From an uncultured cyanobacterium (GTDB lineage Bacteria > Cyanobacteriota > Cyanobacteriia > Phormidesmidales > Phormidesmidaceae): a stretch of 64,000 nucleotides of DNA. Where the stretch lies: positions 140,571 to 204,570 of the forward strand of contig CAWDNC010000009.1 of assembly GCA_963803535.1 (NCBI GenBank), given 5' to 3'. Of this stretch, positions 47,417-59,342 are shown in pieces. A program made the translations under genes and the position numbers. The notes beneath the pieces are model-generated. The model had not been told where the DNA came from, ran no database searches, and saw nothing but the letters and a program-made list of their open reading frames with translations. Positions within the stretch are counted from its first letter, which is position 1, and each line of letters begins with the position of its first letter.

Positions 47417-47599
47417 CTAGGATTTTGACATCTTCGCAACGGGTTGCAAATAGTGAGATTTTTTAGAGGGATGATAGACTTCACCGCTGTAGGGCTGGAC
47501 GCCTGCAAGCGGATAGGAGTCGTGGTTAGGACTAAAGATCTCTAATGAGCCTTCAGCGATGTATCCAAGAGCGCTGGTGAATCCTGTGAAAAGTTTCAT
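47417..47599 (-). CDS. 60-aa small protein, copy 1 (FSPNHDSYP..G.QPYSGE motif)
   Basis: 44/60 identical to 58996-59178, mostly conservative substitutions; SD-like AGAGG upstream. Confidence 0.85.
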   Translation of the reverse strand: MKLFTGFTSALGYIAEGSLEIFSPNHDSYPLAGVQPYSGEVYHPSKKSHYLQPVAKMSKS

Positions 47600-47733
47600 A
47601 ACAAGTGGCCTCTTTTGAAGATGCTATGACTATATCCAGAGCATGTGTCAGGAATATGACCAACATTATTCAAAGCTGTGACAGTTGCCTCTATGGCCGT
47701 TTTTAATGCGGTATTTTAGGGAGGATATGTTGA
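47600..47733 (-). promoter_or_regulatory. Conserved upstream region of small gene copy 1
   Basis: The reverse complement shares TAAAATACCGCATTA, CTG[TA]CACAGCTTT, GGTCATATTCCTGACACATGC and CATCTTCAAAAGAGGCCACTTGTTATGAAACTT with 58861-59004. Confidence 0.8.
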
Positions 47734-48150
47734 GACCAGATGCCTTTGAGTCTTCGCTGTGAAAATTGTAGTTTTTATTAGAGAAAGCTTAGGAGAGAGG
47801 TGTTTGTGTGTTTCATAAGGAAGATGCGTATCCCTGAAATTGCAGCGGGTAGCTCTTTCTATACCACTGATCCAAAAATGATCTAAAAACTCAAAGAAGT
47901 TGACCTGCTTTACAAAAAGAACTCTCTGGCGATCGCACGCGCTAAACTTTCGCTTCTACTTGAGCTGTCTCAGTAGCACCAAGCACCAAAGCAGCCAGCG
48001 AGGTAATCGGTGTTCCATCTCGGCGCTCTCCTACGAACCTGTTGTTTGTAATAGACCGATCACATCGTATCAGCCATGCCTGTTGTTTTACATAGCCCTG
48101 TGGTGTCATTAGCCACAAGGTAATTGCGGCGCAAAAACCGTGGGCTAGAA

Positions 48151-49783
48151 CTAACGATGAATAGATTCAAAAGCCTTTATCATAGCCTCAACTATCCCTG
48201 GCGGAAATTCTATAGGCAGTGTTCCGCTACGCAAGTGCAGATCGCGCTGGGGATAAGGAATTTCAATACCATTATCTCTTAAAATCTCTTCTATTCGAAA
48301 ATATAGGTCGCTGCGAATTTTAAGGTGGAGTTCTGGATTGCGAATCCATACCATCAGGTCAAACTCAATCGCGCTATCGCCAAACGTTTTGAGATAGACT
48401 TCTGGCAGCGGCTTTGGTAAAACTTCTCCATGTTCTCGCGCGGCCTCCAATAGCGCAGCTTTTACCACTTTACAGTTGCTGCCATAGGCGATCCCTACGT
48501 TTAAGTGTAGGCGAGAGACCGGATGATCGTGATTCCAGTTCATCACCAAGCATTCGATTAAATGCGCGTTAGGCACCAGCACCGAAATGTTATCAAGATT
48601 TCGCAGGGTAATACTTCTGGTACCAATACGCTCTACGACACCCATATGAGGTTCAATTTCGATAAAGTCTCCTACCTGGATAGAGCGTTCAAATAAAAGC
48701 ACTAAGCCACTACCAAAGTTTTTAGCGATATCTTGAAAGCCAAACCCGATACCAATTCCCAAGGCACTTCCTAAGAGCGCAACAGATCGCAAGTCAATGC
48801 CCCATGCCTGCAAGATAATTAATAAGCCAACGGCAAACGTACTGTAGCGATACGTTTGCGTAACGACCTCTTTAGCTCCCCGCGCTAGCTGCGTGCGCCT
48901 AAGAATTTGAGTACTCAAAACTCTGGCAGATACCTGAATGAGAACAAACAATCCCCAAATCAAGCAGACTAATATGAGTAAGTCGGCTAGCGTATAGGCC
49001 TGTCCGCCCACGCTTACAACCGGCGCACGAATACCTGCGGTGGAACTGTTTAGCAAGGTATATCGCCTTTGCCGTAGCGTCGGAAATAGGGAGGAAACGA
49101 ACCACGCAAAGCTCACCCAAACCAAAAACCTGACAAATGCTAGCTTGAGCTTCAGCACAAAATGAAAGTCTTGCGCACCGGGCATTCCTGTCTTCGGAAT
49201 TTTAGGAATGACTTGCCTAAGCACCCTCCGTAGGGGACGCTGCCAAAAATAGCCCAGTCCGTAGTGGAGAGAGATGGCCACTAAAGCCGCAAACCCTGTT
49301 AGCCAGGTGGCATACAGCATATAGTCCGGTTCTCTTTCTAACCGAGCTTGACGAAGCACGATCTCAATTTGGTTAGCCCACTCTTCCGCCTGCTCCGAGG
49401 GCGTTTTGTCTAGCGTTGTATAGCGTTGTATCTAAATCTGTCACGGTTAGTAGGTACTGCCCGTTAGCAACAATAGTGGGCTGCTGATTGCGTTCAACGA
49501 CCTTCACGCTGGTTTCTTTCACCAAATTTGCCAGCAGCAACAGCTGCCTATTAGCCTGATTTGCTCGCTGCTGGGCCGTGTACGCCTGCGACGGCTCAAC
49601 ACGAAAAACCGGACGCCCATCTACAACTACACTGGCGTTTGTTGTGTCTATAGTTTTAAGAGCGTGAGAAGCTGGCGCGAGCATTAGGCATAGGCTGATA
49701 GCAATTAATAGGAAAAGGCAAAGCCGGTAGGGTTTCTTTAACCACGTGGCCACGGCCCGAAGTGCTGTTTGAGATAAACGCAT
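48151..49783 (-). CDS. mscS: MscS-family mechanosensitive channel with N-terminal extension, interrupted by a 10-bp tandem duplication
   Basis: GIGIGFGFQDIAKNFGSGLVLLFERSIQVGDFIE, GIEIPYPQRDLH; TAGCGTTGTA x2 at 49411-49430; removing one copy puts ORFs 49373-49783 and 48151-49359 in frame. Confidence 0.85.
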
Positions 49784-50428: not shown

Positions 50429-52711
50429 TTGGATTATAAGAAAGTGTCGCCTTCCACCGCTGGTTCCAAGTCCACTTTTGCCAAGCTAGGGGCTTACCTC
50501 TATCGCTACCGAGTCTGGACGCTTATTGTCTGGGCAGTCGTTACCCTAGTGAGCTTGGCCGCAGCGCCTCGTCTGGAAAATTCGCTGCAAGAGGTTAAGG
50601 TTGCCGATGAAACAGGCGAGGCCAACCGCACCGAACAGCTCATACAGCAAGCATTTGATGTTGATCCCAATGCGCTGACGATTGTTTTTAAGCAAGCACC
50701 AAGCCTGGATAAATCTGAGGCGTTAGAAGAGATAGAGGCTACCCTTGACTCAATTAGTGAGCGATCGGATGTCAGTGCGATCGCCCGCCCAAGCGAATAC
50801 CCTGAGTACATCAGCGCCGACGGCCAAACTCAGTATGGCATCATCAATCTGAAGCCATCAGGCACCGACACCATTGAACAGATAGAACAGCTCATTGCCG
50901 ATCGCCCAACTCAAAACGTAGATATCTATTTAACAGGCAAGCCCGCTGTCGATCGAGCCGTTCAGCGCGTCAGCAAAGCCGACCTGCGCAGAGTAGAGCT
51001 AGCCGTTCTCCCCATTACGCTAGTCGTTTTAGTGCTTGTGTTTGGTTCAGCTGTCGCTGCTACTATGCCAATCGCTATGGGCATTGTGGCGGTTTCTGTC
51101 ACGCTGGGGCTGCTTTACCTAGTCGCCCAAAGACTCAGCGTTTCTGTCTTTGCACTCAACCTCACCAGTATGCTCGGGCTCGGGCTCGGCATTGACTACG
51201 CCCTGCTAATCGTCAATCGCTTTCAAAAAGAGCTGGCCGCTCACTCCGTAGAGGAAGCTATCAGCATTACCTCAGATACCGCCGGACGCGCCATCTTCTT
51301 CTCTGGCATTACCGTCTGCATTAGTCTCTTTGGGCTTATTCTCTTTCCCATTCGCCTCCTCCAATCTCTTGGCATCGCTGGGGCAATTGTCGTCTCCCTG
51401 TCCGTCCTCACGGCGCTGACCCTGCTGCCTGCTTTACTGAGCGTCATTGGTCACGGTATTCACTACGGCAGCCTTTTTTCAAGAGGTAACAAACAGCCAA
51501 AGTTCTGGGGCAAAGTTGCCCGCGCCGTTATCCGCCGTAGCGTTCTTTTTACGCTGCTGGTTCTGTTGGTTGTCGCCGGACTCACTGCGCCTTTTTTCTC
51601 TGCCAAATTCGGCGTAGGCAACGCTGATATCCTACCTGTTTCTGCGCCTGCTAGGGCGGGCGTAGACCAGATAACACAGGCGTTTGGCCCAGGTGAAACC
51701 GCGCCTATTTTGCTGACCGTTCAACCGGGCGCTGCCGATGAACCGCTCCTCTCTACCGAGCACATAGCCACCTTATATAACTTTGTAGACAGCCTACAGC
51801 AAGATCCGCGAGTGAGTAGCGTACAGAGCATTGTCAACCTCGATCCTACGCTGACGCTGCAAAACTACCAGCAGCTATACGCCAACCCCGACCAAATTCC
51901 ACTGCCTCAAATTGCCGCCGCACTCGATCGGCTTACGGAGCAGAAAACAACATTGGTTATTGTCAAAAGTAAGACCGACCAGCAGTCCGAGGCGACTCGC
52001 GAGCTAGTTCAAGACTTTCGCAGTACAGCGTTAGAAGATTTGAACATTCAAGTAGCCGGACAAACCGCTAGCGAACTAGACGTTATCGCGGCGATTGAAC
52101 GCCGCCTACCCCTAGTGCTGAGCCTGATTATGGTGGCGACGTTTATCACGCTTAGCCTGTTACTGCGATCGCTCGTGCTACCCATCAAGGCCATCATCAT
52201 GAATCTGCTCTCTATGGGGGCGTCCTTTGGTGCGTTGGTCTTCATTTTTCAAGAAGGACACTTCCAGCGCCTGCTCAACTTCGAGCCGGTTGGCTACATA
52301 GATATTCTGCTGCCGGTGGTGCTTTTTTGCGTGTTGTTTGGTCTCAGTATGGACTACGAGGTCTTTTTGCTAACGCGCATTAAGGAAACCTATGACGCGC
52401 TAAAGCACAATGGAGAGCCCGCGAATAAGAACAATACGGCCAGCGTCATCATCGGATTAGAACAGACAGGTCAGCTCATCACCAGCGCTGCTTTGCTGGT
52501 GATTATTGTGACGAGTGCTTTTGCTTTCACTAGCCTGATCTTTGTGAAGGCGCTGGGTTTGGGTGTTGCGATCGCCATCGCCATCGACACAACGCTTATC
52601 CGCATTATCCTGGTTCCAGCCAGCATGAAGTTAATGGGCAAGTGGAACTGGTGGTCGGGGTCATTCTTCCAAAAGTCTGCGAGCAAAGCGCCCAATGCGA
52701 AGCTGCGTTAG
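50429..52711 (+). CDS. MMPL family (RND superfamily) transporter
   Basis: GLGLGIDYALLIVNRF, TAGRAIFFSG, FGLSMDYEVFLL.RIKE, TG.LITSAA, DTTLIR.ILVPA. Confidence 0.92.
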   Translation: MDYKKVSPSTAGSKSTFAKLGAYLYRYRVWTLIVWAVVTLVSLAAAPRLENSLQEVKVADETGEANRTEQLIQQAFDVDPNALTIVFKQAPSLDKSEALEEIEATLDSISERSDVSAIARPSEYPEYISADGQTQYGIINLKPSGTDTIEQIEQLIADRPTQNVDIYLTGKPAVDRAVQRVSKADLRRVELAVLPITLVVLVLVFGSAVAATMPIAMGIVAVSVTLGLLYLVAQRLSVSVFALNLTSMLGLGLGIDYALLIVNRFQKELAAHSVEEAISITSDTAGRAIFFSGITVCISLFGLILFPIRLLQSLGIAGAIVVSLSVLTALTLLPALLSVIGHGIHYGSLFSRGNKQPKFWGKVARAVIRRSVLFTLLVLLVVAGLTAPFFSAKFGVGNADILPVSAPARAGVDQITQAFGPGETAPILLTVQPGAADEPLLSTEHIATLYNFVDSLQQDPRVSSVQSIVNLDPTLTLQNYQQLYANPDQIPLPQIAAALDRLTEQKTTLVIVKSKTDQQSEATRELVQDFRSTALEDLNIQVAGQTASELDVIAAIERRLPLVLSLIMVATFITLSLLLRSLVLPIKAIIMNLLSMGASFGALVFIFQEGHFQRLLNFEPVGYIDILLPVVLFCVLFGLSMDYEVFLLTRIKETYDALKHNGEPANKNNTASVIIGLEQTGQLITSAALLVIIVTSAFAFTSLIFVKALGLGVAIAIAIDTTLIRIILVPASMKLMGKWNWWSGSFFQKSASKAPNAKLR

Positions 52712-52732: not shown

Positions 52733-52790
52733 GATGACACACAGATGACACATTTTAGACACTTGCATCGCCCAAAGCTCACGATAGACT
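52733..52790 (+). promoter_or_regulatory. Three GACAC boxes at exact 11-bp period followed by a -35/-10-like pair
   Basis: GACAC at 52736, 52747 and 52758; TTGCAT (52763-52768), 16 bp, TAGACT (52785-52790). Confidence 0.6.
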
Positions 52791-52899
52791 AAAGCTGCCA
52801 TAACCGGCTACGATGCTCAGGCCCTGCGGTATTTGCAGCAGTCCTTCATCAATTTTCTCTCTTATTTTGAAGTCAGCTGACTTTCAAGGAAATCTGTCC

Positions 52900-53322
52900 A
52901 TGTTCAGTCGTAACAAAATTCTCGCGTTGGGTTTGGTGAGCGCTCTCGGTTTGTTCTCACTCACGGGCTGTAGTGCTTCTCCAGAAGCTGAAGTCAGCTC
53001 TTCTGCGCCAGTTGCCGAGACGAGCCAGCCGACTGTTGCTGATACCTCTGACTTAGAGATGATGTCAAAACTAGTCGTAGATACGAAGGCAGCCGTTGAG
53101 GCGGATGATTGGCGTACGGCTAAAGTTTTGGGTGGGCAAATTGAAGGCGACTGGAAAGATGTAGAAGACGACATCAAGGATACTAACAAAGCGGCCTATG
53201 ACACGGTAGAAACTCATATAGACGGGCTCAATAGCGCCCTCAAGGAAGATAATCCTGACAAGGCAATGGTGGTTGATCATCTCAGCGAACTAGAAACAAC
53301 ATTAGCAACCGTTTCGCAATAG
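52900..53322 (+). CDS. Helical-bundle lipoprotein (DUF4363-like)
   Basis: Lipobox LTGC; acidic helical C-domain (W..VED.IK..NK.AY..VE). Confidence 0.75.
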   Translation: MFSRNKILALGLVSALGLFSLTGCSASPEAEVSSSAPVAETSQPTVADTSDLEMMSKLVVDTKAAVEADDWRTAKVLGGQIEGDWKDVEDDIKDTNKAAYDTVETHIDGLNSALKEDNPDKAMVVDHLSELETTLATVSQ

Positions 53323-53377
53323 AGCCTGTCGTCGATCAGCATTTTTGCTAAACACTATTTTTTGGAAGAGGCCTCCC

Positions 53378-53683
53378 ATGAAACGTTTGCTTCGTAAGTA
53401 TCACCGCTGGCTAGCGCTGGTGATACTTGCGCCTTTGAGCTTAACTGTTATTACCGGAATGCTGACGACGATGAGCCAGGAATGGCCTGTTAATCTGGGC
53501 CTTAGCTCTCGCTTTTTGCTGAAGCTGCACACGGGAGAGCTGTTCGGTTTGCAGGCTATCTACCCTATTTTCAACGGCATAGGCGTGATTGGGCTGCTGG
53601 TGACAGGAGCCTCTATGCTAGGGCTGTTTGGCCGCTCTCAAGGTAAGTCCTCTCAAGTCGTTGAGGGAGTCGTTGAAGCTTAG
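53378..53683 (+). CDS. Small PepSY-associated TM-helix protein
   Basis: RKYHRWLA...TG, LHTGE.FGL...Y....G.G...L..TG. Confidence 0.8.
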   Translation: MKRLLRKYHRWLALVILAPLSLTVITGMLTTMSQEWPVNLGLSSRFLLKLHTGELFGLQAIYPIFNGIGVIGLLVTGASMLGLFGRSQGKSSQVVEGVVEA

Positions 53684-53714
53684 GGTATTTTTTAATACGC
53701 TAATTTTTTACACT

Positions 53715-53769
53715 AATTGATAATTAATGTCGATAGTGTTCTATGATCTAAGACATTCTTTAGATCATA
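53715..53769 (+). promoter_or_regulatory. Fur-box-like AT-rich site plus a perfect 10-8-10 inverted repeat upstream of feoA
   Basis: AATTGATAATTAATGTCGAT (53715-53734); TATGATCTAA-N8-TTAGATCATA (53742-53769). Confidence 0.55.
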
Positions 53770-53785
53770 AAAGCGTTTCAACTCA

Positions 53786-54307
53786 ATGAGAAAAAAGGGT
53801 TTTGTCGAAACTGCTGAGCGCTGTCTCTCTGTGGAGAACGCAGGCTTTCTGCTATCAGCGGCTAAATTGGGTGATCGCCTTGAAATTGTTGCACTATCTG
53901 GACAAAACGATAACGCTCGGCTGCTGGGCATGGGGCTGATTCCGGGCGTCTTGTTAGAAGTCGTCAACACAGATGTTCGAGGGTCTATTGTGGTTGCTCT
54001 GAACCATCAAAGACTTGCGTTAGGCCTCGAAATTGCTGAGAGAATTCGGGTTGAGCCCGCGATCGCTCCGTCAACTATTCGGCTAAAAGATCTGGCCGTT
54101 GGCAGCACCGCCGAAGTCGTGGGCTATAGCCCAGCAGCTCGCCCCTACCGACGCAAGCTGCTGGCGATGGGTCTAACGAAAACAACTCAGTTTACCGTTG
54201 TCAGGCGAGCACCCCTTGGTGACCCAATTGAAATTCGAGTTCGCGGCTTTAGCCTAAGCCTACGCAAAGACGAGGCCGATGCGCTACTAGTGCAGCCCCA
54301 TGCCTAA
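53786..54307 (+). CDS. feoA: Tandem two-domain FeoA
   Basis: RLLGMGLIPG...V and RRKLLAMGL.KTT...VVRRAPLGDPIEIRVRGFSLSLRK.EA. Confidence 0.92.
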   Translation: MRKKGFVETAERCLSVENAGFLLSAAKLGDRLEIVALSGQNDNARLLGMGLIPGVLLEVVNTDVRGSIVVALNHQRLALGLEIAERIRVEPAIAPSTIRLKDLAVGSTAEVVGYSPAARPYRRKLLAMGLTKTTQFTVVRRAPLGDPIEIRVRGFSLSLRKDEADALLVQPHA

Positions 54308-56723
54308 CCCTATCTCTAGTCCTGTATCTAATCCTACTACTAGCCCTGTGATTGGATTAGTCGGCAATCCCAACTGTGGCAAAACCACTCTGTTCAATGC
54401 GCTCACAGGCGCTAATCAGCGGGTAGGGAACTGGCCAGGGGTCACCGTAGAGCGCAAAGAAGGCCGCTACCGACAGCAATCACAGGGATCAGAACAAACG
54501 GTTGTTGTTGTAGACTTGCCGGGTGTGTACTCGTTAGATGCTGAAGATACAGCCACCGGACTCGATGAACTGGTCGCGAGAGACTATCTGCTAGCGGGCG
54601 AGGCCGATGTCATTATCAATATCGTTGACGCGTCTAATCTAGAGCGTAATCTCTATCTCACAACGCAGATACTGGAGATGGGGGTGCCGCTGATTTTGGC
54701 GCTGAATATGATGGATATCGCCCGCAAACGCGATATCAAGATTGATGCGATCGCCCTAGCAGAAAAGCTAGGCTGCCCGGTCGTTTCGCTGAGTGCGGCC
54801 TCTGGTCAGGGTGTCTCACAGCTCAAGCGCTGCGTGCAAACGCAAGGGACTCACCTAGCGGTACCTGCGGCGCAAGTGGTGTACGCACCAGAAATTGAGG
54901 CGGCGATCGCGGCAATCATTCCCACGCTGCAACAGACCCACCAAAACAACGCTGTAGATTGTCGCTGGCTCGCCATTAATCTGTTGAGTGATGAGACCGG
55001 CAGCGCCACAGCTCACTATGGTGAGGCGGTAGTCCGCATCGTCAGCGCTCACCGGCAGTCAATAGAAGTCGCGCTTGAAGAAGATCTTGATTTGCTAATT
55101 GCTGACTATCGCTACAGCTACATCCGTCAGCTAGTCGATAGCGTTGTGCAGGCCAGTCAAGAAGTCACCACCCATTTTTCTGATCGCATTGATCGGATCG
55201 CGCTAAGCCGCTGGTGGGGAATTCCAATTTTTCTGCTGGTGATGTACGTCATGTTCACAATCTCTATCAACGTAGGCGGCGCTTTTATTGACTTCTTTGA
55301 TATCAGCTTTGGCAGTGTCTTTGTAGATGGCGTGGCTCATCTGCTTCAGCAAGCCCAGGCCCCTGGCTGGCTAATTGGCATCCTCGCCGATGGCATTGGC
55401 GGCGGCATTCAAACCACCGCGACCTTTATCCCGCAAATTTTTCTGTTGTTTGTGCTGATGTCTGTTCTAGAAGATTCGGGCTATATGGCAAGAGCAGCGT
55501 TTGTGATGGATCGGCTAATGCGCTTTGTGGGCTTACCAGGAAAGTCTTTTGTGCCGATGCTGGTGGGCTTTGGCTGCAATATCCCAGGGGTGATGGCCAC
55601 GCGAACGTTGGAGAATAAGCGCGATCGCTTTATGACTATTATGATGAATCCGTTTATGTCTTGCAGTGCCCGCCTCACGGTGTACGCGCTGTTTTGTGCG
55701 GCGTTTTTCCCCGTCGGCGGACAAAACAAAGTCATGGGCCTTTATCTGCTTGGCATTTTGGCTGCTATTTTCACCGGACTAGTGCTCAAACACACCCTGC
55801 TCCCCGGCGAAGTGGCTCCGTTTGTGATGGAGCTACCTCCCTATCACGTTCCTAAGCTCAAAAGCGTGCTGCTCAGAGGCTATGAAAGAACAACTGCTTT
55901 TGTGACAAAAGCGGGCAAGGCAATTGTTTTAGTCGTGATGATTCTAGGCTTTTTAAATGCTGTGGGCACCGACGGCTCCTTTGGCAAACACAACAGCCAG
56001 GATTCTTTACTCAGTACGGTTGGTCGCACGGTGACGCCTGCCTTTGCGCCCATGGGCATTACGAACGAGAACTGGCCTGCTACGGTTGGTCTAATGACGG
56101 GAGTACTGGCTAAAGAGGTGATGGTAGGCACGCTAAATTCTCTCTATGGAGAACTCGCGCAGGCGCAGACAGCCGCAACGGCTATGCCCGATCCGCCCTA
56201 TCGTTTTTGGGACAGTATCGGTCAGGCATTTGCCAGCATTCCTAAAAACCTAACGACTGAAGTGCCCCAGCTACTGCTCGATCCCTTTGGCTTTGGCAGC
56301 GCCAACACCCAAGGACTTAGCTCAGAAGATATCGCCCGCTCAGAGGCTAAAGCCCAGTCTGTTGCAACAGCCCAAGGCGTTTCGCTTAGCACCTACGGCC
56401 AAATGGCCCAGCGGTTTGGCAGCACGCAGTCGGCGTTTGCCTATCTGTTGTTTGTGCTGCTGTATTTTCCCTGCGTGTCAGCAACGGGCGCTATTTACCG
56501 CGAAACAAACTTGGGGTGGACGGTCTTTATCAGCTGTTGGACAACCGGCCTAGCCTATGGAGTGGCCGTTGCCTATTACCAGATGGCCACTTTTGCGGCT
56601 CATCCGTTTTCATCGCTGCTGTGGGTCGGTGGCTTAGCGGTTGTTCTATCGGCTGTCATCTTAGGGCTAAAGCTGGCGGCTCCAGAGGTCAGGCAGAATC
56701 GCGCGGCGCTCAAGCTGCCATAA
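54300..56723 (+). CDS. feoB: Ferrous iron transport protein B
   Basis: GNPNCGKT, NWPGVTVE, DLPGVYSL, LNMMD, GFGCNIP, PFMSCSAR, ELPPY, LYFPCV. Confidence 0.97.
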   Translation: MPNPISSPVSNPTTSPVIGLVGNPNCGKTTLFNALTGANQRVGNWPGVTVERKEGRYRQQSQGSEQTVVVVDLPGVYSLDAEDTATGLDELVARDYLLAGEADVIINIVDASNLERNLYLTTQILEMGVPLILALNMMDIARKRDIKIDAIALAEKLGCPVVSLSAASGQGVSQLKRCVQTQGTHLAVPAAQVVYAPEIEAAIAAIIPTLQQTHQNNAVDCRWLAINLLSDETGSATAHYGEAVVRIVSAHRQSIEVALEEDLDLLIADYRYSYIRQLVDSVVQASQEVTTHFSDRIDRIALSRWWGIPIFLLVMYVMFTISINVGGAFIDFFDISFGSVFVDGVAHLLQQAQAPGWLIGILADGIGGGIQTTATFIPQIFLLFVLMSVLEDSGYMARAAFVMDRLMRFVGLPGKSFVPMLVGFGCNIPGVMATRTLENKRDRFMTIMMNPFMSCSARLTVYALFCAAFFPVGGQNKVMGLYLLGILAAIFTGLVLKHTLLPGEVAPFVMELPPYHVPKLKSVLLRGYERTTAFVTKAGKAIVLVVMILGFLNAVGTDGSFGKHNSQDSLLSTVGRTVTPAFAPMGITNENWPATVGLMTGVLAKEVMVGTLNSLYGELAQAQTAATAMPDPPYRFWDSIGQAFASIPKNLTTEVPQLLLDPFGFGSANTQGLSSEDIARSEAKAQSVATAQGVSLSTYGQMAQRFGSTQSAFAYLLFVLLYFPCVSATGAIYRETNLGWTVFISCWTTGLAYGVAVAYYQMATFAAHPFSSLLWVGGLAVVLSAVILGLKLAAPEVRQNRAALKLP

Positions 56724-56760
56724 TTTCAACTTTCAATACGTTGCTAAAGGCGTAACCAAC

Positions 56761-56994
56761 ATGATCGTCACTGAACTACAACAATACTTAAGGACTCAGC
56801 ACAAGGTCTCTATGTCTGAGCTACAGCTACACTTTCGGATGGAGGCGGATGCCCTGCGCGGTATTTTGAGCCGATTGATTCGTAAAGGGCGCGTGAGTAG
56901 AGAAGACGGTAAGCTATGCGGGGGGTGCCGTAGCTGCGCGCCTGAGGCGATTGAATTTTATGGCTGGGTTGAGCGCGATCGGCTGCGGCTATAA
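56761..56994 (+). CDS. feoC: FeoC-like winged-helix protein
   Basis: LQ.YL....KVS..EL..HF....DALRG.L..L.RKGRV...CGGC.SC; directly after feoB. Confidence 0.85.
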   Translation: MIVTELQQYLRTQHKVSMSELQLHFRMEADALRGILSRLIRKGRVSREDGKLCGGCRSCAPEAIEFYGWVERDRLRL

Positions 56995-58086
56995 GAGGGT
57001 TTTAGGTAGCCAAAATTGGAAAGTTGTTCCTTGATTAGGCTGACTTTCGACAAAAATTTCACCGCCTTGCAGTTCTACAAGCTGGCGGGTAATGGTCAGA
57101 CCAATGCCGGTGCCGCTGCGGTGCTGCGATCGCGCCTTTTCAGACCGCCAAAATCGCTCAAATACATGGGGCAGTTCACTGGCCGACAGCCCGCAGCCCG
57201 TATCAATCACCGATATCCAAACCCGCTCACCCGCTGACCAGGCTTTGAGAGTAATGCTTCCTTGTTGCGTGTGCCGAATGGCATTGCCTAGCAGATTGAC
57301 GAGAATTTGCTCAGTGCGATCGCTATCTGCCCACACCTTCGGTAAATCAGCCGGACAGTCCAACCGCAGCCCTGGCCCTTCGTCCATGATTTGAGACTCG
57401 AATCGCTCTATCAGTTCAAAGAGTAAAGGCGGCAACGGCAGCACCTGAAGCGATATAGGTAAGCTACCGGATTCAGCCTTAGACAGATCTTGTAGATTGT
57501 TGACCAGGCGCTGTAGCCGCTTAGTTTCACCCAGCAGGCGTTTGCGAATGTCGGGCGTGGGCTGAATGCGATCGCTATCCATTTCTTCTAAATAGCCTCG
57601 AATCACCGTCAAAGGCGTTCGCAGCTCGTGCGAGAGATCCGTCACGATCTCTCGGCGTCGGGCCTCAGCATCTTCAAGCGCACCGACCATCTGATTCAAG
57701 CTTCTTCCTAGCCGCGCTAGCTCAGGGATTTCGCTGGTAGGTACGCGCTCGTTTAAATGTCCGTTGGCTAAGCGATAAGCCGCCTGTTCAATTTCTACTA
57801 GAGAGTGATTAATCCGAGAGGCTATCCAGTCGCTTAAAAGTGCAGCGATCGCAATACCAACAATCAAGGCTAGCAGCGTGCTGTAGTTCCAGGCCCAGTC
57901 GAAGCCTTGCACCAGATCCGTCCGAGCGTCTTGAATAGAAAAACCATTGCTCTCTAGGCTATCTAGATGGCGTGAGAACAGATGCGCCGAAGAGAGATTG
58001 CTAATCGCGGCGAAGCTCAGTAGTCCTAGCAACAGCACTGACAGATGAGAAACAAACAGTCGATAGTGCAGATTCAGTCCAGGCAT
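56989..58086 (-). CDS. HAMP-HisKA-HATPase sensor histidine kinase
   Basis: SHELRTPL, QILVNLLGNAIRHT, DTGCG, FERFWR, GTGIGL. Confidence 0.95.
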   Translation of the reverse strand: MPGLNLHYRLFVSHLSVLLLGLLSFAAISNLSSAHLFSRHLDSLESNGFSIQDARTDLVQGFDWAWNYSTLLALIVGIAIAALLSDWIASRINHSLVEIEQAAYRLANGHLNERVPTSEIPELARLGRSLNQMVGALEDAEARRREIVTDLSHELRTPLTVIRGYLEEMDSDRIQPTPDIRKRLLGETKRLQRLVNNLQDLSKAESGSLPISLQVLPLPPLLFELIERFESQIMDEGPGLRLDCPADLPKVWADSDRTEQILVNLLGNAIRHTQQGSITLKAWSAGERVWISVIDTGCGLSASELPHVFERFWRSEKARSQHRSGTGIGLTITRQLVELQGGEIFVESQPNQGTTFQFWLPKTLL

Positions 58087-58130
58087 ATCGCGCTTTCTCA
58101 GAGGATGTTTTCACTTAAATGATCTTTGAC

Positions 58131-58859
58131 TTAAGCATCTTCAAACTTATAGCCCACGCCCGTGACGGTTTTAATAAACGTCGGCTGAGCTGGGTTAGGC
58201 TCTACCTTTTTCCGCAGCCTAGCTACCTGAGTATCCACCACCCGGTCATCTCCAAAAAAATCATCGCCCCACAGGCTCTCAATCAGCTGGCTGCGCGTCC
58301 AGGCTCTACCTGGATGGCTCAAAAACGTCGCCAGCAGCTTAAACTCCAAGGCCGCAAGCGCCAGCGTTTCAACAGGCTGATTGTCCAGCAAGCGCTGAGC
58401 CTTATGCTCCTCAACATTCACACTAAAGTGCGGGCTTTGATAAACCTGCGCGCTAACCGTTTCACGCAATCTACGGCGGAGCAACGCCCGCACTCTAGCC
58501 ACCAGCTCAATCGGGCTGAAGGGCTTTACCAGGTAATCATCTGCGCCCGTTGAAAGGCCAATTACCCGGTCAATCTCCTCCCCTCTAGCCGTCAGCATCA
58601 GCACATACGGATCGGCCTGACTCGAATGATGGCGAATGCGCGTGCAAATTTCCAAACCATCTAGCTCACCCGGCAGCATCCAGTCCAATATCACCAGATC
58701 GGGCTGAGCGCTTTCAAAAGCTGCGATCGCTAGCGCCCCCTCACCACAGTGCTGACAGCTAAAGCCTTCCTTTTCAAGAAGCTGCTGAATCAAATGCGCA
58801 ATTTCAATTTCATCTTCAACAATCAGTATCTGCTTATTCACACGCTCAAAGCCCTTCAC
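58131..58859 (-). CDS. OmpR/PhoB-family response regulator
   Basis: ILIVEDE, LDWMLPG, GADDYLVKPFS, wHTH 'EFKLL...TR.QL...WG...VD..VARLRKK.E...TV.GVGY'. Confidence 0.96.
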   Translation of the reverse strand: MKGFERVNKQILIVEDEIEIAHLIQQLLEKEGFSCQHCGEGALAIAAFESAQPDLVILDWMLPGELDGLEICTRIRHHSSQADPYVLMLTARGEEIDRVIGLSTGADDYLVKPFSPIELVARVRALLRRRLRETVSAQVYQSPHFSVNVEEHKAQRLLDNQPVETLALAALEFKLLATFLSHPGRAWTRSQLIESLWGDDFFGDDRVVDTQVARLRKKVEPNPAQPTFIKTVTGVGYKFEDA

Positions 58860-58860
58860 A

Positions 58861-58995
58861 TCAACACATCCCTCTAAAATACCGCATTAGAAAACGGCAG
58901 CAAAAGAAAACTGACACAGCTTTTGATGCAATCGGTCATATTCCTGACACATGCCATCGCTATATTAGTCACATCTTCAAAAGAGGCCACTTGTT
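58861..58995 (+). promoter_or_regulatory. Conserved upstream region of small gene copy 2, divergent from the response regulator
   Basis: GACAC 58913, GTCAT 58935, GACAC 58946, GTCAC 58968 (offsets 0/22/33/55). Confidence 0.75.
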
Positions 58996-59178
58996 ATGAA
59001 ACTTCTCAACGGACTTGTTAGCTCTCTCGGATATCTCGCTGAAGGGTCACTAGAACTCTTTAGCCCCAACCACGACTCATACCCTACCGTAGGTATACAG
59101 CCCTACAGCGGTGAAGCCTATCGTCCTTCTAAAAAGTCTCACTATCAAGACCCGGTTGCTAAAATGACACCTTCTTAA
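58996..59178 (+). CDS. 60-aa small protein, copy 2
   Basis: Paralogue of 47417-47599. Confidence 0.85.
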   Translation: MKLLNGLVSSLGYLAEGSLELFSPNHDSYPTVGIQPYSGEAYRPSKKSHYQDPVAKMTPS

Positions 59179-59311
59179 TTACAAGTACTTCTGTCCTCAA
59201 ATATCTTAATAAAGCATTCAAGACTCACACCTTTATATTGGGGCATTTATCGTTCTGTGATGAGTGCCCTTTTCTGTTGTTATTTATTCTCAACGTTTAC
59301 GTGAATTAATC

Positions 59312-59342
59312 AAAGTCCGGAGAAATTCTTCGGACTTTTTTT
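59312..59342. terminator. Probable bidirectional intrinsic terminator
   Basis: AAAGTCCG...CGGACTTT stem followed by a T-run, between convergent genes. Confidence 0.7.

Follow-up and report, generated by a model that had tools for sequence, protein, structure and literature searches.

Two-component systems (TCSs) that respond to envelope or secretion stress, such as CpxAR, CssRS and MprAB, induce HtrA/DegP, and TCSs also induce small feedback proteins, of which MgrB, PmrD and SafA are examples. The Pho box of Escherichia coli is said, in accounts associated with Makino and Wanner, to end 10 bp upstream of the −10 element, and cyanobacterial SphR recognizes a different Pho box, PyTTAAPyPy. The E. 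coli box has been described as a pair of 7-bp CTGTCAT repeats separated by 4 bp and was redefined as two 11-bp units, each with a TGTCA tract (PMC4447250, PMC4415409). In Synechocystis, htrA is the sole gene reported under the control of Hik10-Rre3 in salt or osmotic stress (PMC3195437). Rre3 is Sll0649 (PMC4361706); the protein encoded by htrA (slr1204) falls in the sll0649 mutant, and no shift of the slr1204 promoter was seen with unphosphorylated His-Sll0649 (PMC5559466). No published Rre3 binding motif was found in the literature consulted, and a capped search with the published primer sequence for sll0649 gave 7 chance matches, in unrelated bacteria. Here we analyze a stretch of 64,000 nucleotides from a 5.2-Mb (5.22-Mb) cyanobacterial genome (C9:140571-204570; hereafter, the window), in which short boxes of the form G[AT]CA[CT], phased by multiples of 11 bp, precede several genes in the vicinity of an OmpR/PhoB-family response regulator (RR).

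The boxes occur in the window at a density of 0.0027 per base per strand. Three sites with phased boxes lie, together with the RR gene (58131-58859, minus strand), within one 12-kb span: one before each of two copies of a small gene encoding a 60-amino-acid protein, and one before an operon of lipoprotein, PepSY and feoABC genes (the feo site). On balance, we lean towards the interpretation that these boxes represent the direct-repeat operator of an OmpR/PhoB-family RR, which would be the adjacent RR at the small genes and probably also at the feo operon. A sequence-only reading of this region had proposed that the boxes define a regulon of the RR, and every box that it listed was found at its coordinates. 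Copy 2 of the small gene (58996-59178, plus strand), which is divergent from the RR gene, is preceded on the plus strand by GACAC (CTGACACAGCTTT; box 1, 58913-58917), GTCAT (GGTCATA; box 2, 58935-58939, 22 nt after box 1) and the promoter-proximal GACAC (CTGACACAT; box 3, 58946-58950), with a putative −10 element, TATATT (58961-58966), exactly 10 nt after box 3. Copy 1 (47417-47599, minus strand), whose 60-amino-acid product is 73% identical to that of copy 2, has GTCAC (47682-47678), GTCAT (47660-47656) and GACAC (47649-47645) on the minus strand at offsets 0/22/33, and a putative −10, TATAGT (47629-47634), again 10 nt after box 3. At the feo site, three GACAC boxes start on the plus strand at 52736, 52747 and 52758 (52736-52762; ATGACACA, ATGACACA and TAGACACT), an exact 11-bp period; the array begins 25 nt past the stop codon of the upstream MMPL transporter gene, and a candidate −10, TAGACT (52785-52790, plus strand), lies 22 nt beyond the last box. 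The fourth box that had been assigned to copy 2 (GTCAC, 58968-58972, plus strand) is probably not a site: it is located downstream of the −10, is absent from the orthologues and is shifted in copy 1, where a further GTCAT (47630-47626, minus strand, offset 52) is off phase from it. Because the copy 1 and copy 2 loci are paralogs, 87% identical over approximately 340 bp with the promoter included, their boxes are inherited and amount to a single piece of evidence, beside which the feo site is a second, independent observation.

The small-gene promoters could be compared across genomes. Of the 36 congeners searched, 4 (G006, G012, G028 and G032) were found to encode a close orthologue of the small protein, at 69-74% identity, and an order-wide search of 173 genomes added the small gene in G172 and, in another genus, in G128. 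The same four congeners possess close orthologues of the RR (77-92% identity), with only 45 candidates scored per genome. In G000, G006, G012 and G028, the small gene is the divergent neighbour of the RR gene; the two are separated by 220 kb in G032 and by 3.4 kb in G128. No gaps are needed to align six in-genus promoters from five genomes over the stretch bounded by box 1 and the TAnnnT hexamer of the putative −10. In this alignment, boxes 1 and 2 have between-clade identities of 0.80 and 0.74, and box 3 (CTGACACAT) one of 1.00, compared to 0.35-0.46 for the upstream DNA, the spacer between boxes 1 and 2, and the 10-nt spacer. Box 1 is retained as TG[ACT]CA[CT] in the six promoters and box 2 as G[ACT]CAT, and box 3 does not vary among the 7 promoters of orthologues and paralogs. 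The G128 promoter contains CCCAC/GGCAC/GACAC at 0/11/22, followed by 10 nt and TACAGT. The boxes are thus kept in phase in the orthologous promoters, both in the six in-genus promoters and in G128, and the proposal that the spacing survived the divergence of the intervening bases was borne out as well, with 9 of the 17 positions between boxes 1 and 2 differing between the copies (counted by eye) and the orthologues in agreement.

The 60-amino-acid protein itself (copy 2 contains ..FSPNHDSYP..QPYSGE..) has no Pfam or NCBIfam match and no transmembrane segment. The family to which it belongs is widespread among cyanobacteria and has the motif ..LAEG..(R/E)IFSP..D.YP..G.QP(Y/F).G..; within it, relatives of about 95 amino acids carry an N-terminal Nif11-like leader (TIGR03798, 3e-9); the public names 'nicotinate phosphoribosyltransferase' and 'isochorismate synthase' given to relatives of 49-50 amino acids look like annotation errors. 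One subfamily, of 49 amino acids and beginning MTFFQ.., is found in most genomes and is unlinked to this RR. The promoters of this subfamily, including that of the copy in the same genome (C8:1223328), contain no such boxes, so the boxes are not a trait of the wider small-protein family. Between the predicted transcription start and the ATG of the 60-amino-acid genes, the 5′ untranslated region contains a conserved element, (C/G)TCTTCAAAAGAG(G/A) (58974-58990 and 47605-47621); the element is tandemly duplicated in G006, and insertions separate it from the ATG in G006 and G028.

The distance between the boxes and the putative −10 is also regular. A TAnnnT hexamer begins exactly 10 nt past the last box in all 7 small-gene promoters, and the same gap is found at three non-homologous sites, namely, before a sigma factor gene in G032, before a lipoprotein gene beside the TCS in G028, and before a MarR-HlyD operon, also in G028, that has four upstream boxes at 0/11/22/33. 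A gap of 21-22 nt to TAnnnT occurs at five sites, the feo site of the window and four in the relatives; the candidate −10 of the feo site is positioned one helical turn further than those of the small genes. A scan for the sigma-70 −35/−10 consensus detected no pair in either window promoter, as would fit activator-dependent promoters. The proximal repeat takes the position of a −35 element at a fixed distance from the −10, where the −10s are predicted, as are the transcription starts, near 58973 (plus strand), 47622 (minus strand) and 52797 (plus strand); given that the last unit lies 10 nt from the −10 and that there is no −35, the RR would replace the −35 contact.

Phased arrays of these boxes are rare and are concentrated around the RR and the small genes. 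The genome-wide scan that had been suggested recovered the 0/11/22 triple only once, at the feo site, and the 0/22/33 triple three times in the whole genome, with two of these at the small genes; the control periods of 9, 10, 12 and 13 bp yielded 0-3 triples each across the genome. When clusters were defined as at least 3 of 4 phased G.CA[CT] boxes, the whole genome contained 18 clusters of period 11, and the 100 kb near the RR or the small gene in six genomes contained 12, compared to 0.35 expected; in the same 100 kb, periods 8, 9, 10, 12, 13 and 14 produced 0-1 clusters, as expected. Half of the 12 clusters are located outside small-gene promoters: three at the G028 locus (at a lipoprotein gene, at a gene for a TMEM175-like channel and before a glycoside-hydrolase region), two in G128 (at a PRC-barrel gene and at a PepSY-like gene that is transcribed away from the small gene), and the feo site. 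In a motif set of 42 in-phase units from non-redundant sites, positions free of selection were also biased, with T at −1 in 31 units, A at +5 in 25 and C or T at −2 in 34; because these flanks are informative and had not been used in the selection, the unit extends to yTG(A/T)CAyA. The sites accordingly consist of same-strand repeats with a core yTGnCAyA and a period that is specifically 11 bp, as in a direct-repeat operator. The motif, its phase, its conservation, the fixed position of the −10 and the clustering at the locus are all directly visible in the DNA, and it is very probable that RRs of this subfamily use the boxes as functional operator half-sites.

The RR combines a Response_reg domain (PF00072, 1.3e-27) with a Trans_reg_C domain (PF00486, 1.7e-26), the architecture of the OmpR/PhoB family, and its best relatives of solved structure are RegX3, MtrA and BaeR. 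Since the orthologues begin MNKQ/MNNQILIVEDE, translation probably starts at the GTG at 58841. The protein scores under every NCBIfam equivalog cut-off, the top model being PhoB. It was rejected as a PhoB/SphR phosphate regulator given the TIGR02154 score of 224.7, below the cut-off of 296.2, and the identity of its neighbours (feo, MMPL and small genes); no pst or pho genes are present near the RR. The gene of the cognate histidine kinase (56989-58086, minus strand) encodes two transmembrane helices, an outer loop of approximately 37 amino acids, and HAMP, HisKA and HATPase_c domains. Under the mechanism that we propose, the half-site yTG(A/T)CAyA, repeated every 11 bp on one face of the DNA, would be bound head to tail by the phosphorylated RR, which would take over the role of the −35 contact in recruiting RNA polymerase, in the manner of PhoB at Pho boxes. 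This RR with its kinase is the most likely binder at both 60-amino-acid genes, an assignment that draws on adjacency, on co-occurrence and on the pile-up of sites around the local TCS in three genomes, and the same RR would probably drive the lipoprotein/PepSY/feoABC operon from the triple GACAC site. Binding, activation and the paralog that acts at each site are inferred.

The paralog in question is encoded by a second RR/kinase pair of the same genome (C4:47613-49513; RR 48764-49513, kinase 47613-48734), the RR being 61-65% identical and the kinase 46% identical to those of the window. The pair of this C4 type is conserved, with representatives in 35 of the 36 congeners and in 14 of the 25 genera sampled, and the recognition helix of its RR, RVVDTHIARLRKK, is near-identical to that of the window RR, RVVDTQVARLRKK. 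In the phylogenetic tree, the window RR, its four orthologues, the small-gene-linked RR of G128 and a sequence from G057 fall outside the conserved-RR clade (support 90/86), a position that implies that the window system is an older, patchily retained paralog rather than a recent duplicate. At its variable position, the box has A in 19 of the 42 units of the local set, whereas the conserved htrA operators described below have C or T there almost without exception, which hints that the two RRs have different half-site preferences. A specificity rule based on Gln or His in the recognition helix is weakened by the G128 small-gene-linked RR, which has His, not Gln, and serves only as a lead.

The same box architecture was encountered at genes for HtrA proteases. 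A genome scan for two boxes, 21 nt and TAnnnT pointed to an HtrA/Deg protease gene (C8:~1691560), the promoter of which (C8:1691485-1691527) reads GCCAT-6-GTCAC-6-GTCAA-10-TATATT, and TTCACACGAT-GCCAY-N6-GTCAY-N6-GTCAA-N10-TAnnnT precedes the orthologous gene in most of the congeners examined. The presence of this architecture before an HtrA protease gene across the genus is new. In other genera, the DNA upstream of HtrA genes contained 4 matches in 16.6 kb, compared to an estimated ~0.02 expected, and the array was found in none of 6 genomes without the conserved RR. Extra HtrA copies beside the local TCS in G012 and G028 have boxes at the canonical distance, and G004, in which no local TCS was detected, possesses a 79%-identical HtrA homologue with boxes. 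A second HtrA paralog of the window genome (C1:154951-155976) has five GACAY/GTCAC boxes within 49 bp upstream (C1:~156300-156350), arranged in two interleaved 11-bp series, 0/11/44 and 17/28, with no clear −10 at the canonical offset.

A number of observations weigh against assigning the boxes to the window RR. In many congeners with boxes before HtrA, the window RR was not found among the candidates scored, and nearly all of these genomes have the conserved paralogous RR. In other genera, two phased boxes followed by 10 nt and TAnnnT precede an HtrA paralog in 4 of 6 genomes with the conserved RR. Given the near-identical helix and the boxes at HtrA genes in genomes without a detected window RR, the boxes are not unique to this RR, and the box class seems to belong to a regulator subfamily rather than to the window RR alone; the conserved paralogous RR, probably of the Hik10-Rre3 type, appears to use the same box class at HtrA promoters. 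With a shared recognition helix, the C4 paralog could be the true binder in the window as well. The co-occurrence of RR and small gene may be mere co-inheritance as one cluster. Furthermore, no local RR was detected in G172, which has the small gene, or in G004, which has a box-bearing TMEM175-HtrA locus, although in both cases the locus is at a contig end. Finally, the two-box pattern GNCAY-N5-TGACAC, with 6 matches in the genome, 3 of which are the window sites, shows no genome-wide excess over a reversed-pattern control; only location and geometry are informative, not this count.

An alternative is that the boxes are genuine operators bound mainly, or also, by the conserved paralog (C4:48764-49513, with its kinase C4:47613-48734; probably Hik10-Rre3-like). 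The small genes and feo would then join htrA in an envelope/salt-stress regulon, and the adjacent RR would have other targets or take part through cross-talk. Beyond the shared helix, the genus-wide geometry at HtrA promoters, its distribution in other genera (4/6 RR-positive vs 0/6 RR-negative), the nearly universal presence of the conserved RR among the congeners and the box-bearing genes of G172 and G004, where no local RR was detected, this explanation gains from Synechocystis, in which htrA is under Hik10-Rre3 control (PMC3195437) and the sll0649 mutant shows lowered slr1204 (PMC5559466). The small gene, however, occurs in few genomes only and is attached to the local RR and kinase in four of them, the phased clusters of G028 and G128 lie within a few kilobases of the local TCS, and the local boxes are GACAY-rich in contrast to the C or T of the htrA operators. 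We consider this alternative doubtful but worth keeping in view. Of the regulon originally proposed for the OmpR-type regulator, the operator-like character of the boxes, their phase, the −10 spacing and the enrichment at the locus stand, whereas the RR that acts on them is not uniquely identified.

The feo site calls for separate consideration. It follows the MMPL transporter gene (50429-52711, plus strand) and precedes, all on the plus strand, a lipoprotein gene (52900-53322; begins MFSRNKILALGLVSALGLFSLTGC), a gene for a small PepSY_TM-like membrane protein of 112 amino acids (53345-53683; PF03929, under cut-off), the orthologues of which in the relatives are 71-82% identical, and feoA (53786-54307), feoB (54300-56723) and feoC (56761-56994). 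Here, too, part of the evidence is adverse to control by the window RR. Because feoB was not found in the five closest relatives (G006, G012, G028, G032 and G172), there is no orthologous feo promoter to compare; the contig with feoB of G128 ends at the gene. The homologue of the lipoprotein gene in G012 is solitary and box-free. Units 1 and 2 of the feo site (GATGACACACA and GATGACACATT) are identical at 9 of 11 positions, or at 10 of 11 in the other register, and could have arisen by slippage duplication; the assignment of the feo-site −10 is weak.

Accordingly, the feo triple might be an 11-bp tandem duplication made by slippage and devoid of a regulatory role, such that only the small-gene sites would be functional and a Fur-like region before feoA would control feo. 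In addition to the near-identity of the two units, the missing orthologous promoter and the box-free G012 gene, it counts for this explanation that the site has no TAnnnT at the canonical 10-nt offset and that, judged by the control periods, a single triple per genome is compatible with chance. Nevertheless, the sole triple of the genome is intergenic and points toward the operon, with the RR 6 kb away. In their flanks, the feo units fit the extended motif, 2 of 3 having T at −1 and A at +5, and the 21-22-nt offset to TAnnnT recurs at the four other sites. An equivalent triple, TGACAC/TGACAC/TGTCAT at an 11-bp period, precedes the PepSY-like gene of G128 as an independent parallel, and lipoprotein-PepSY pairs elsewhere are also found under 11-bp repeats of another OmpR-type system. 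With these points taken together, we regard slippage without function as unlikely. The support for the feo site as an operator of the window RR consists of own-genome statistics and the analogous PepSY-gene site of G128. Thus, the proposal that the RR controls the lipoprotein operon gains from the unique triple and from this parallel, and the part that would call for an orthologous site fares less well, given the lack of an orthologue and the box-free homologue in G012.

The repeats of the other system are of interest in their own right. The lipoprotein-PepSY pairs of G004, G017 and G031 carry TCTTG(A/C/T)C-N4-TCTTGAC repeats with an 11-bp period (L033, L034, L040 and L041) and are divergent from a different OmpR-type RR/kinase pair, the RR of which is 34-35% identical to that of the window; a related repeat, TCTTGCC-N4-TCTTAAC, lies at the PepSY orthologue of G032 (L100:1435-1460). 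These repeats and the other RR are a candidate second operator/regulator pair. The window genome contains no close orthologue of that other RR, the best match being 42% identical, and it is a reasonable inference that the lipoprotein-PepSY module, which in this genome is fused to feoABC, came under the GACAC-type operator through re-wiring.

A third explanation, that all the boxes are chance matches plus the shared ancestry of duplicated DNA, with no operator at all, can draw on a motif that is short, degenerate and defined after the fact, on the paralogy of copies 1 and 2 and on the lack of genome-wide excess of the two-box pattern, but is highly improbable in view of the period-11-specific enrichment (12 clusters vs 0.35 expected), the conservation of boxes against diverged spacers, the exact 10-nt offset at non-homologous sites, the informative unselected flanks and the recurrence of the architecture at HtrA promoters across genera.

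Autoregulation of the RR through the divergent promoter, which the sequence-only reading had raised as a possibility, found no support, as the boxes face away from the RR gene and none is phased before the unlinked RR gene of G032. A suggestive sign comes from G128, where a single TTGACACAGCTTT box is located 21 nt before TATAGT, ahead of a lipoprotein-RR-kinase operon. We cannot tell whether the RR controls its own gene, and lean towards the view that it is not supported. Just upstream of the unlinked G032 RR gene (L059:9090-9330), there are tandem arrays of ACGGACAATGGATT (four copies) and AAAATATGCAGAC (three copies).

Several further features of the locus and the genome may be recorded here. 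The small gene together with approximately 135 bp of promoter forms an inverted duplicate (47417-47740 and 58860-59178; 87% identity), and the two copies bracket a block of about 11 kb with mscS, the MMPL transporter gene, the lipoprotein-PepSY-feoABC genes, and the kinase and RR genes. Two terminator-like hairpins (59240-59270 and 59312-59338) lie 3′ of copy 2. In G004, G006, G012 and G172, all of them draft genomes, the orthologous loci are on short contigs or at contig ends. Elsewhere in the genome, a 155-bp spacer between convergent genes (C1:166018-166155) contains four GNCAY boxes at 0/11/22/33 and a fifth that is 2 nt off phase, followed by TAGATT at a non-canonical distance of 15 nt. 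Beyond this hexamer is a 78-nt stretch with a 5′ hairpin and a terminator-like hairpin with a U-run (z = −3.98), so that the site may possibly direct a regulator-dependent small RNA.

Activation from direct repeats in the manner of PhoB is a textbook mechanism, and the regulon predicted here, although well supported, is of a familiar kind. If the interpretation favoured here is true, an uncharacterized TCS of a marine filamentous-type cyanobacterium gains a defined operator, its core target would be an unannotated family of 60-amino-acid proteins, and the TCS would have a strain-specific link to ferrous-iron uptake. The wider gain would be a candidate motif for Rre3/Hik10-type regulators at htrA, and two paralogous RRs that share one operator design would be useful for the study of insulation against cross-talk.

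Like E. coli PhoB and the Pho box, the system features head-to-tail 11-bp repeats with a 7-bp core and approximately 4 variable bases, at promoters without a −35. The window RR, which is 40% identical to E. coli PhoB, has the same R193, R201 and R203 in its recognition helix; the differences are T194V, V197T, H198Q, R200A and, in the wing, R219T. The sites also differ from the Pho box in layout in that both 0/22/33 and 0/11/22 occur. Like Hik10-Rre3, the system comprises an OmpR-type RR, with candidate boxes before HtrA genes where the conserved RR of the subfamily occurs, and the C-terminus of Rre3, ..KFEDPD, resembles the ..YKFED of the window RR, a comparison derived only from primers (PMC4361706). 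The window RR lies outside the conserved clade and is at most a paralog. A wider scenario we put forward tentatively. The yTGnCAyA array with an 11-bp period that ends 10 nt before the −10 would be an undescribed operator of the Rre3 (Sll0649)-type subfamily and would explain the control of htrA by Hik10-Rre3. The window system would be an old paralog with the same DNA-binding design, insulated by half-site preference (GACAC-rich vs G(C/T)CAY...GTCAA), which may arise through the Gln/His difference in the recognition helix, and would govern a mobile accessory regulon that always includes the 60-amino-acid protein and has here recruited the lipoprotein-PepSY-feoABC iron-uptake operon. The window system has no homology beyond the family level to CpxAR, CssRS and MprAB or to MgrB, PmrD and SafA. 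It resembles the stress-responsive TCSs in having an RR of the OmpR family and a kinase whose outer loop is short, and its candidate targets include HtrA proteases, lipoproteins, membrane proteins, the efflux operon of a relative and a tiny protein encoded beside the TCS.

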